A model generated the notes under the pieces. The model was given only the letters and a program-made list of their open reading frames with translations. It was not told the origin of the DNA and searched no databases. A program made the position numbers and the translations under genes. From IMG/VR virus record IMGVR_UViG_2548876955_000010: a stretch of DNA of 16,048 bases. One strand, 5' to 3'. Positions 7,212-8,157 of the stretch are shown one piece after another. Positions within the stretch are counted from its first letter, which is position 1. Every line of letters begins with the position of its first letter. This DNA comes from a virus (Duplodnaviria; Heunggongvirae; Uroviricota; Caudoviricetes).

Positions 7212-8157
7212 ACGCCCACTGGTTATAAACACGCAGCTGGCAATGAAAATCGGCTTAAACGAAGCCATTGTTTTGCAACAACTGCACTACTGGTTGAGAG
7301 ATACCAACTCCGGTATGGAATGTGATGGTGTTCGCTGGATTTATAACACAACGGAACAATGGCTGGAACAGTTCCCATTCTGGTCAGAGTCAACGTTAAA
7401 GCGCGCGTTTGCAAGTCTGAAAACGCTGGGGCTTTTGCGTTGTGAAAAGCTCAATAAATCAAAGCGCGATATGACCAATTTCTACACGATCAACTATGGG
7501 AGCGAGCTTTTAGATGGTGGCAAATTGAACGAATCCATCGGTTCAAAATGCGCCGCTCCATCAGGTCAAAATGACACGATGGAAGAGGTCAAAATGAAAC
7601 GCTCCATTGGTTCAAAACGACCCAATGTCATCGGGTCAAAATGGCCTGATGATCTTACAGAGAATACAACAGAGATTACTACAGAGAATAAAAACACTTT
7701 TCGTCCGGAAGCTTCGCAACCGGACCCGCAGACGACTGAACAGGATTTTTTAACCCGGAACCCCGACGCGGTTGTGTTTAGTGTGAAAAAACGCCAGTGG
7801 GGTAGCAGGGAGGATTTGGCGTGTGCGCAGTGGATTTGGGGGCGGATCGTGAACCTTTACGAACAGGCTGCCAGCGACGATGGAGAGATCATGCGACCAA
7901 AAGAGCCTAACTGGACAGCCTGGGCCAATGACGTGCGCACAATGCGGATGCTGGATGGCAGAAGCCACAGACAAATTTGCGAAATGTTTGGTCGGGTACA
8001 GCGGGATCCATTCTGGGTAAAAAACATCATGAGCCCGTCAAAACTCCGCGAAAAATGGGACGAACTGGTCATCCGCCTGGGACGTTCACCTGTACAGCGT
8101 TGTGTGAATCATATTTCTGAACCGGATACAGAAATTCCGCCTGGTTTCAGGGGATAA
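7192..8157 (+). CDS. Phage replication initiation protein (replisome organizer) with DnaT-like C-terminal domain
   Basis: ATG 7192 (MSLLFAERPLVINTQLAMKIGLNEAIVLQQLHYWL…). C-terminus …VNHISEPDTEIPPGFRG closely resembles the C-terminal end of primosomal protein DnaT (…[13 protein letters not shown], from memory). Contains an internal iteron array (see repeat feature). Confidence 0.85.
   Translation: MSLLFAERPLVINTQLAMKIGLNEAIVLQQLHYWLRDTNSGMECDGVRWIYNTTEQWLEQFPFWSESTLKRAFASLKTLGLLRCEKLNKSKRDMTNFYTINYGSELLDGGKLNESIGSKCAAPSGQNDTMEEVKMKRSIGSKRPNVIGSKWPDDLTENTTEITTENKNTFRPEASQPDPQTTEQDFLTRNPDAVVFSVKKRQWGSREDLACAQWIWGRIVNLYEQAASDDGEIMRPKEPNWTAWANDVRTMRMLDGRSHRQICEMFGRVQRDPFWVKNIMSPSKLREKWDELVIRLGRSPVQRCVNHISEPDTEIPPGFRG
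7539..7643. repeat. Iteron-like direct repeats (5 copies of GG(T)TCAAAA(T/C)G, about 23-24 bp spacing) inside the replication gene; candidate phage origin
   Basis: Copies start at about 7540, 7564, 7587, 7609 and 7634, encoding the repeated IGSK/GQN peptide motif. Followed by an A-rich stretch with repeated ACAGAGAATA (about 7660..7700). Analogous to ori-lambda iterons inside the O gene. Confidence 0.6.

Follow-up and report, generated by a model that had tools for sequence, protein, structure and literature searches.

Iterons and an unwinding tract inside the initiator gene are textbook features of lambdoid phages. In lambda and the Shiga toxin (Stx) phages, O dimers bind the iterons, form an O-some and melt an AT-rich tract (PMC7466680). 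In ori-lambda and in the six-iteron Stx phages 933W and P27, the middle of the initiator gene, which codes for the protein linker, houses the origin (PMC7466680), and these origins carry 4-6 dyad-symmetric iterons about 20-24 base pairs (bp) apart. In Bacillus phage SPP1, the initiator gp38 (a replisome organizer) binds direct repeats in its own gene beside an AT-rich unwinding element at oriL (PMC6316719). The plasmid initiators pSK41 Rep and pTZ2162 RepA, of the RepA_N type, have three parts: the N-domain is a conserved winged helix, the linker can be dispensed with, and the C-domain is variable and host-specific. The linker-coding DNA, with Rep boxes central in rep, is the origin (PMC5703833). 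Here we compare these systems with a locus in a 16,048-nucleotide (nt) stretch of viral DNA (Caudoviricetes; IMG/VR record IMGVR_UViG_2548876955_000010), which we call the window. Positions 7513-7725, within an O-like initiator gene of 321 amino acids (aa), form a lambda-style origin by anatomy and homology. We estimate a probability of about 0.85 that a lambdoid prophage of the Qin/mEp460/HannyBb type uses this segment as its origin of vegetative replication, placed in DNA that codes for a predicted disordered linker. The gene and the DNA elements within it are as follows.

7192-8157, plus strand: replication initiator gene, O-like, 321 aa, assigned from the translation of the open reading frame (ORF) and a match to phrog_391; 'hypothetical protein' in RefSeq.
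About 7513-7535, plus strand: degenerate leftmost (sixth) iteron, GGTGGCAAATTGAACGAATC..., with CAAATTG 23 bp upstream of iteron 1.
7536-7558, plus strand: iteron 1, CATCGGTTCAAAATGCGCCGCTC, translated IGSKC.
7559-7581, plus strand: iteron 2, CATCAGGTCAAAATGACACGATG, translated SGQND, a near-perfect palindrome.
7582-7604, plus strand: iteron 3, GAAGAGGTCAAAATGAAACGCTC, translated EVKMK.
7605-7627, plus strand: iteron 4, CATTGGTTCAAAACGACCCAATG, translated IGSKR.
7629-7651, plus strand: iteron 5, CATCGGGTCAAAATGGCCTGATG, translated IGSKW, a palindrome that adjoins the unwinding region.
7657-7692, plus strand: three 12-mers, ACAGAGAnTAC (ACAGAGAATACA / ACAGAGATTACT / ACAGAGAATAAA), the proposed DNA-unwinding element.
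7703-7725, plus strand: GC-rich inverted repeat GTCCGG-N11-CCGGAC, right of the 12-mers, with arms that covary in relatives.

The motif GKTCAAAAYG occurs on the plus strand at 7541, 7564, 7587, 7610 and 7634, at spacings of 23, 23, 23 and 24 bp, and three independent repeat tools agreed on the array. An earlier reading of the same DNA (the original prediction) had proposed five near-identical motifs at about 23-24 bp inside the initiator ORF; it was right about the ORF, and its coordinates were correct to within 1 nt. When one mismatch was allowed on both strands, the whole window held 9 matches against 2.78 expected (standard deviation 1.65; 200 shuffles), a count reached in 0 of the 200 shuffles, and 5 of the 9 real matches fall within about 100 bp on one strand. 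Tandem Repeats Finder (TRF) reported a period-23 array at 7534-7607 with a score of 71. The repeat unit is a full 23-bp imperfect palindrome with the consensus CATCrGGTCA-AAA-TGACCyGATG, and the units abut across 7536-7651, which corresponds to nt 345-460 of the gene and aa 115-153 of 321; a repeat search also returned iterons 2 and 5 as an inverted pair, 78% complementary. A well-formed copy of the sixth, leftmost iteron is present in mEp460_4F5 and Kp4882-3. Lambda-type origins carry at least four tandem dyad-symmetric iterons about two helical turns apart, and the window has five plus the degenerate one. The likeness extends to position and shape: the lambda iterons start at nt 349-416 of the gene (starts 20, 24 and 23 apart), and both sets share a TCA-AAA-YGA centre, TCCCTCA-AAA-CGAGGGA in lambda and GGGTCA-AAA-TGACCY in the window.

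The motifs had also been described as encoding a repeated IGSK linker peptide, which is correct for three of the five copies. The five are read in frames 0, 2, 1, 0 and 0 as IGSK, SGQN, EVKM, IGSK and IGSK, and copies 2 and 3 depart from IGSK because 23 is not a multiple of 3. One could take the three IGSK copies, together with the repetitive peptide TENTTEITTEN and a TExT motif that the proteins of the family conserve, as signs that the repeats arose only because a short linker peptide was duplicated in the protein and have no function in the DNA. The 23-bp period, which puts two copies into other frames, speaks against this, as does the disorder predicted for the linker: in the AlphaFold2 model, the disordered stretch (aa 109-174) is the one encoded by the iterons and the 12-mers. 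Diversity by codon position, computed over 61 distinct sequences from close and moderately distant relatives, bears on the same point. At codon positions 1, 2 and 3, nucleotide diversity in the N-domain was 0.072, 0.043 and 0.248, a pattern that is the normal signature of protein-level selection. This periodicity was gone in the iteron cores (0.073, 0.074 and 0.071), and the 12-mer block gave 0.000, 0.051 and 0.008, so that third-position diversity was 3.5-fold lower than in the N-domain for the iterons and about 30-fold lower for the 12-mers. Synonymous codons were fixed to a similar degree: in the 12-mer-encoded TExT motifs, Glu was GAG 133 times and GAA once, against 912 GAG and 1193 GAA elsewhere in the same genes, and ACA or ACT encoded 263 of 267 Thr residues. 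Some 12-mers of Lactobacillus phage mv4 and Bacillus phage TP21-L fall into a different reading frame (RDY, QRI) and yet retain their nucleotides. Judged from these comparisons, the repeats clearly act at the DNA level and are under purifying selection. The original prediction had named protein-level duplication without conservation at synonymous positions as the outcome that would count against it; we found synonymous sites strongly conserved across three frames. Protein-level duplication is extremely unlikely as an account of the array, and we rejected it on the reading frames and the synonymous sites.

An A/T-rich stretch with repeats had been noted after the array. This stretch is the stability minimum of the gene and is built of tandem 12-mers, but it is just about 70% A+T. 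TRF found a period-12 array at 7657-7690 (ACAGAGAATACA, 2.8 copies, score 54). With nearest-neighbour energies in 45-bp windows, the least stable segment of the gene was 7649-7693, at a free energy (dG) of -50.4 against a gene mean of -62.0 (standard deviation 3.7), or 3 standard deviations below the mean, and only 1.1% of windows across the whole 16 kb were less stable. The minimum coincided with the 12-mer block in 7 of 7 Gram-negative relatives examined. Segment 7649-7693 thus corresponds to the adjacent, easily melted A/T-rich region of a lambda-type origin. Gene O of lambda has its equivalent minimum in the AT-rich region (dG -50.0 against -61.7), and this adjacent A-rich, purine-skewed minimum is equally deep in both; top-strand purine content is 65% in the window and 67% in lambda, where A+T reaches 74%. 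The two differ in that the unwinding region of the window is a conserved 12-mer repeat and not a plain A/T tract.

The original prediction had drawn the element at 7539-7700. The repeats within these limits stand, but the element also runs past 7700, up to the inverted repeat at 7703-7725. Of the related loci, 46% had inverted-repeat arms of at least 6 bp, compared with 18% of random segments, and there was no difference for arms of at least 7 bp. The arms covary among relatives (GGTTGC/GCAACC, GGTTCC/GGAACC, GGCTCA/TGAGCC), and some relatives have a near copy of lambda's TTCGTCAGAGAATTCTGGCGAA at this position. Lambda likewise has an inverted repeat on the right. With an enrichment this modest, the inverted repeat counts as a probable, not an established, third origin element.

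The protein encoded around these elements divides into the following parts.

7192-7506, plus strand: conserved N-terminal domain, aa 1-105, predicted to be a winged-helix DNA-binding domain.
7729-8079, plus strand: lambda-O-like C-terminal domain, about aa 180-296, from BLASTP to lambda O and a helical model.
8092-8154, plus strand: C-terminal 21-aa tail, VQRCVNHISEPDTEIPPGFRG, which matches, and nearly copies, the last 21 aa of E. coli DnaT.

The initiator matched phrog_391, 'replication initiation O-like', essentially from end to end (E 1.9e-92), with protein aa 17-321 aligned to positions 11-298 of the 298 in the profile. The initiators of mEp460, HannyBb and PhiR42_1 are members of this family, which is represented in the databases by a name only, and in most genomes RefSeq calls the protein a 'hypothetical protein'. 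Pfam and NCBIfam gave no family for it, barring a 20-aa match in the DnaT-like tail. By BLASTP, aa 147-294 aligned with aa 135-270 of lambda O at 34% identity over 148 aa (E 1e-27). The homologous C-terminal domain is a further likeness to lambda, and on this alignment the C-domain is a true homologue of that of lambda O, as expected of a lambda-type initiator. The other lambda O signature was absent: Phage_rep_O (PF04492) had no match at E<=1 in any of 11 members, and hhalign of the N-domain profile with lambda O gave a probability of 0.2, with no N-terminal homology. The window therefore differs from lambda in an N-domain that has no detectable sequence relation to O. As in lambda, the origin lies inside the gene between the two domains (aa 1-105, linker, aa 183-296), and the proposed likeness to ori-lambda was confirmed in that iterons and unwinding region occupy linker-coding DNA that runs from the N-domain to the lambda-O-like C-domain.

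Structural prediction offered a second comparison. The AlphaFold2 model was built from a shallow alignment of 10 sequences and is of low confidence (mean predicted local distance difference test score, pLDDT, 56). Its N-domain (aa 14-100, pLDDT 55-76) is winged-helix-like with topology H-H-b-b-H-H-b-b, and its C-domain is helical (pLDDT 70-84). With this low-confidence query, the best Foldseek matches of the N-domain in the PDB were the RepA_N-type structures 4pql_B (E 4.7e-3; template modelling (TM) score on the target 0.56) and 5kbj. The window protein shares its three-part plan with the RepA_N plasmid initiators. Those initiators differ in belonging to plasmids and not phages, and RepA_N (PF06970) was absent at E<=1 by hmmscan. 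Given the marginal scores (E 5e-3, target TM 0.56) and the weak model, a RepA_N-like fold of the N-domain is a lead from modelling and not a result. Searched by sequence with the family profile, the PDB gave no match. The SPP1 system has its own loader gp39, helicase gp40 and a second origin, oriR, and the window protein gave no match to Phage_rep_org_N (PF09681), the domain of G38P-type initiators.

We then asked how the N-domain relates to the iterons. The N-domain has 21 invariant columns over 11 phages of Gram-positive and Gram-negative hosts, and Ser67 stands at the start of the predicted recognition helix (aa 66-78). Over distinct N-domains, the residue aligned with Ser67 was compared with the base directly 5' of the invariant CA of the iteron. 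Ser was paired with T in 46 of 46 cases, and Asp with G in 6 of 6 (Yersinia, two Campylobacterales, Paenalcaligenes, Erwinia phage PEp14 and Klebsiella phage SopranoGao); Lys went with A in 4 of 5, and both Arg cases (2 of 2) had A or C. Lineages that are clearly separate show the Asp-G pairing repeatedly, and the same is true of the Lys/Arg-A/C pairing. This covariation argues for direct binding and is good indirect evidence, at the sequence level, that the N-domain reads the iterons.

The covariation speaks for binding and not for initiation, and the palindromes might be sites for the initiator or another protein used mainly for regulation (autoregulation, a transcriptional roadblock, handcuffing copy control, or titration and exclusion of related phages). 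Plasmid iterons also serve copy control and incompatibility, and cloned lambda ori regions are reported to inhibit related phages (PMC3349717, PMC4488673). What makes a mainly regulatory role quite unlikely is the surrounding anatomy. The iterons are always followed by a stability minimum and a conserved 12-mer block, which is the build of an origin and not of an operator, and the protein itself belongs with the initiators by homology, with a C-domain related by descent to that of lambda O. Furthermore, the window yielded no second repeat array or candidate origin: TRF found just two other short tandem repeats in the window, at 4554-4578 and 10536-10551, which were not examined as origins. Regulatory roles would most likely coexist with origin function and not replace it.

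The architecture extends well beyond enterobacteria. A tblastn search with the N-domain returned 153 phage records, with hosts that include Staphylococcus, Bacillus, Listeria, Lactobacillus, Pseudomonas, Erwinia, Klebsiella and Vibrio, and a scan of one genome per species gave 510 relatives, 80 of which were fetched (Enterobacterales, Campylobacterales, Burkholderiales, Bacillota, Bacteroidota and Thermomicrobiales). At nt 271-570 of the gene, the strongest autocorrelation lag was 22-24 bp in 73 of 90 homologous loci; in the controls (upstream DNA and the N-domain coding region), lags were scattered with none preferred. At least two CAGAGA motifs at 11-12-bp spacing followed the array in 69 of the 90 loci, compared with 2 of 90 elsewhere in about 3 kb of flank, and the 12-mer consensus over loci was ACWACAGAGAnTAC. 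Throughout the family, the palindromic iterons keep CA-AAW-TG unchanged at the centre, and their arms differ by lineage: GGTCA in enterics, Proteus, Xenorhabdus and Staphylococcus, TGTTCA in Bacillus and Anoxybacillus, GGTGCA in Campylobacterales, GGGACA in Pantoea and Mixta, GAGGGCA in PEp14, and GTGCCA in one Bacteroidota genome. A Staphylococcus phage with an N-domain about 50% identical has the iteron CATCAGGTCAAAATGACCCGA, essentially that of E. coli. Klebsiella phages have only positions 7249-7687 (N-domain, iterons and 12-mers) in common with the window, at 78% nucleotide identity, joined to a different, unrelated C-domain; from this mosaic boundary it follows that the binding domain and its sites travel as one module.

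We also observed that the 12-mer ACAGAGAnTAC (7657-7692 in the window; also loci L005, L006, L010, L011 and 65 others) is present in 2-5 tandem copies from Bacillota to Proteobacteria, and its nucleotides are conserved independently of the attached C-domain or helicase genes. The 12-mer looks more sequence-specific than a plain A/T-rich unwinding tract would require. In a separate observation, protein cluster P0018 (and P0016-P0021), related to the window initiator, represents natural variants of 290 aa that lack exactly 31 codons in frame (93 nt, four iterons) and retain a single iteron; these deletions resemble the in-frame ori-minus deletions of lambda.

Some phages have pac sites with repeated motifs inside genes, and the inverted repeat at 7703-7725 could be a protein-binding site, so we considered whether the repeats might serve another DNA transaction, as a site for terminase, a recombinase or a host nucleoid protein. 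Such a role is barely credible for an array that travels with the initiator N-domain over very different phages and hosts, covaries with one residue of that domain, and belongs to the early replication module, at a distance from the genes for packaging. We rejected a pac site or a recombination site on this module context and on the covariation.

The helicase step is where the window departs most from lambda. There is no P, DnaC-like or DnaB-like gene downstream of the initiator in the window, as a lambda-type module would have; the initiator is followed by a DUF977/Ren-like gene and then a PDC-S06 ATPase. The module is the same in HannyBb and PhiR42_1, where again no P, DnaC or DnaB gene comes after the initiator. 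The original prediction had spoken of a P-interacting domain, a label that we have not carried over, since there is no P-type partner gene. In its place, the window initiator has the DnaT-like C-terminus, which matched NCBIfam DnaT positions 160-179 (E 0.006) and, in a PDB sequence search, the DnaT chains 2ru8, 6aep and 9zbt (E 0.004-0.01). DnaT is the adaptor of the PriA-PriB-DnaT preprimosome and is thought to recruit DnaB/DnaC; the paper that describes this is silent on the role of the extreme C-terminal tail (PMC13377028). It is a reasonable conjecture from the sequence match that the tail links the initiator to the host restart machinery, and because no loader gene is present, any account of helicase loading here is conjecture. 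As a side observation, the last ~60 nt of the initiator gene and the start of the DUF977/LygF gene are 90-98% identical to Evi, Tritos and vB_EcoM-606R7, phages whose O genes are otherwise unrelated.

The locus is a Qin-type lambdoid prophage adjoining rspB, with the gene order int, xis, exo, ydfD, dicB, DicF, ydfA, repressor, cro-like, YdaT/cII-like and initiator, followed by the DUF977/Ren-like gene, the PDC-S06 ATPase, hokD/sok, rem, ydfU and Q. The position of the initiator downstream of cro- and cII-like genes is shared with lambda. One further feature lies upstream.

6423-6452, plus strand: pR-like promoter match, a consensus match only, upstream of the operon of the cro-like, cII(YdaT)-like and initiator genes.

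This promoter is a possible source of transcription through the origin, going by its consensus match. Several other observations concern the neighbouring genes. The gene at 6690-7211 (plus strand) matches Pfam PF06254, 'toxin YdaT family', as well as phrog_163, 'CII-like transcriptional activator' (E 9e-41); it overlaps the start of the initiator by 20 nt, and the two ORFs are fused in several database proteins (P0001, P0003 and P0004; 448 aa). At 8899-11496 (plus strand), an 865-aa AAA_13/ABC-type ATPase gives a full-length match to PDC-S06, a PADLOC candidate defence family (E = 0, 1123 bits); it sits between the Ren-like gene and hokD, is absent there in HannyBb and PhiR42_1, and looks like defence cargo borne by the prophage. 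Rfam matches at gathering score were the DicF small RNA (4757-4808, minus strand), the sok antitoxin RNA of the hokD locus (11944-12118, plus strand) and the cspA-type thermoregulator leader of cspB (15672-16048, plus strand, cut by the window end). In the dicB-DicF region, a tandem 13-mer, GTAATAACGTTTG, occupies 4554-4578 in 1.9 copies (TRF score 43).

The contrast that the original prediction drew with the degenerate Qin of K-12 was borne out. K-12 Qin (L175, NC_000913 1641000-1652000) matches the window only at 6578-6969, which covers dicC and the 5' part of the ydaT-like gene (ydfX in K-12). Homology ends at about 6969 with no initiator or iterons: the initiator, the origin and the DUF977 gene are deleted in K-12, and flxA/ydfV/relBE stand in their place. 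In the window, the initiator ORF is full length and its DNA is 96-98% identical to the HannyBb, PhiR42_1 and mEp460_ev081 genes; these phrog_391 phages have the same iterons, and no difference was found. HannyBb and PhiR42_1 are isolated, viable phages with the same one-gene module, and because they carry it at 96-98% nucleotide identity, replication competence of the window prophage is plausible from sequence.

Nevertheless, the segment could be an origin by descent, structurally intact, that the prophage can no longer fire, whether for want of a partner, through decay of the iterons or through a defect in another part of the prophage. The degenerate leftmost iteron and the missing P/DnaC/DnaB gene fit such a relic, Qin-type prophages are often cryptic (K-12 Qin lost the whole module), and the P0018-type variants, which lack exactly four iterons in frame, demonstrate that decay does happen. 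However, the initiator ORF is full length and nearly identical to the genes of the isolated phages HannyBb, PhiR42_1 and mEp460_ev081, which have the same one-gene module without a loader, the iterons and 12-mers are under visible purifying selection in the 61 distinct relatives, and the element is found in 3958 of 5426 complete E. coli genomes. We regard an inactive relic as unlikely, although it deserves more weight than the other alternatives.

Several points weigh against our assignment of 7513-7725 as a functional origin. Besides the degenerate leftmost iteron, the right arms of iterons 1 and 3 are weak, the A+T content of the 12-mer block is only ~70%, and no helicase loader gene stands beside the initiator. 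The structure model is weak (mean pLDDT 56) with marginal fold matches (E ~5e-3), and the counts for the residue-67 covariation are not phylogenetically independent. The window, at 16 kb, stops short of the rest of the prophage. In the literature, we found no paper on binding, melting or origin activity of this initiator family and no published description of a phrog_391 origin.

We hypothesize that initiation would proceed as follows. Dimers of the N-terminal winged-helix domain would occupy the five abutting 23-bp palindromes and the degenerate sixth copy, reading the half-site xGGTCA with Ser67 facing the T before the invariant CA. The bound dimers, phased at 23 bp, would then form an O-some-like nucleoprotein complex that distorts the DNA and stresses the adjoining three copies of ACAGAGAnTAC, which would melt. 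The lambda-O-like C-domain and the DnaT-like tail may bring in the host helicase machinery, with no phage P, DnaC or DnaB involved, and rightward transcription from the cro-side promoter would cross the origin, as in lambda. Like the steps of this scheme, firing of the origin in this strain is inferred.

Considered jointly, the comparisons raise the tentative possibility, which we hold to be somewhat less than an even chance, of an apparently undescribed phage origin design that spans bacterial phyla. It would consist of a conserved N-domain without a Pfam family, winged-helix according to the model; 3-6 palindromic iterons, xxxCA-AAW-TGxxx, with a 22-24-bp period and an apparent rule of Ser-T, Asp-G and Lys/Arg-A/C; and a nearly invariant ACAGAGAnTAC, which appears conserved at the nucleotide level from Bacillota to Proteobacteria with any C-domain or helicase system. 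Because the 12-mer is conserved whatever C-domain or helicase system is attached, it would seem to be a sequence-specific element and not merely a tract that melts easily; the N-domain might bind it as a single strand, or it might be a priming or loading signal. Since the enterobacterial initiator has no loader partner and ends in a DnaT C-terminal tail, it may load DnaB via the host PriA-PriB-DnaT restart machinery. Our literature search found no description of the iteron family (GGTCAAAATG) or of the 12-mers, although they may have been described earlier. As far as we found, three things are apparently new: the cross-phyla breadth of the N-domain/iteron/12-mer design, the one-residue/one-base specificity pattern, and the loader-less, DnaT-tailed variant in enterobacteria.

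Taken together, these results assign a function to a gene that RefSeq lists as a 'hypothetical protein' and that is present in 3958 of 5426 complete E. coli genomes, and they mark the expected replication start of a very common Qin-type prophage. This aids in predicting which prophages still amplify on induction, along with their dicB, hokD and PDC-S06 cargo. For the wider family, the pattern offers a rule by which origins can be located in thousands of phages, whether their hosts are Gram-positive or Gram-negative, a code of protein-DNA recognition that lends itself to testing, and a conserved 12-mer with a possible role in melting or helicase loading. The loader-less initiator with its DnaT tail is a lead on how a phage may recruit the host helicase without a P protein.

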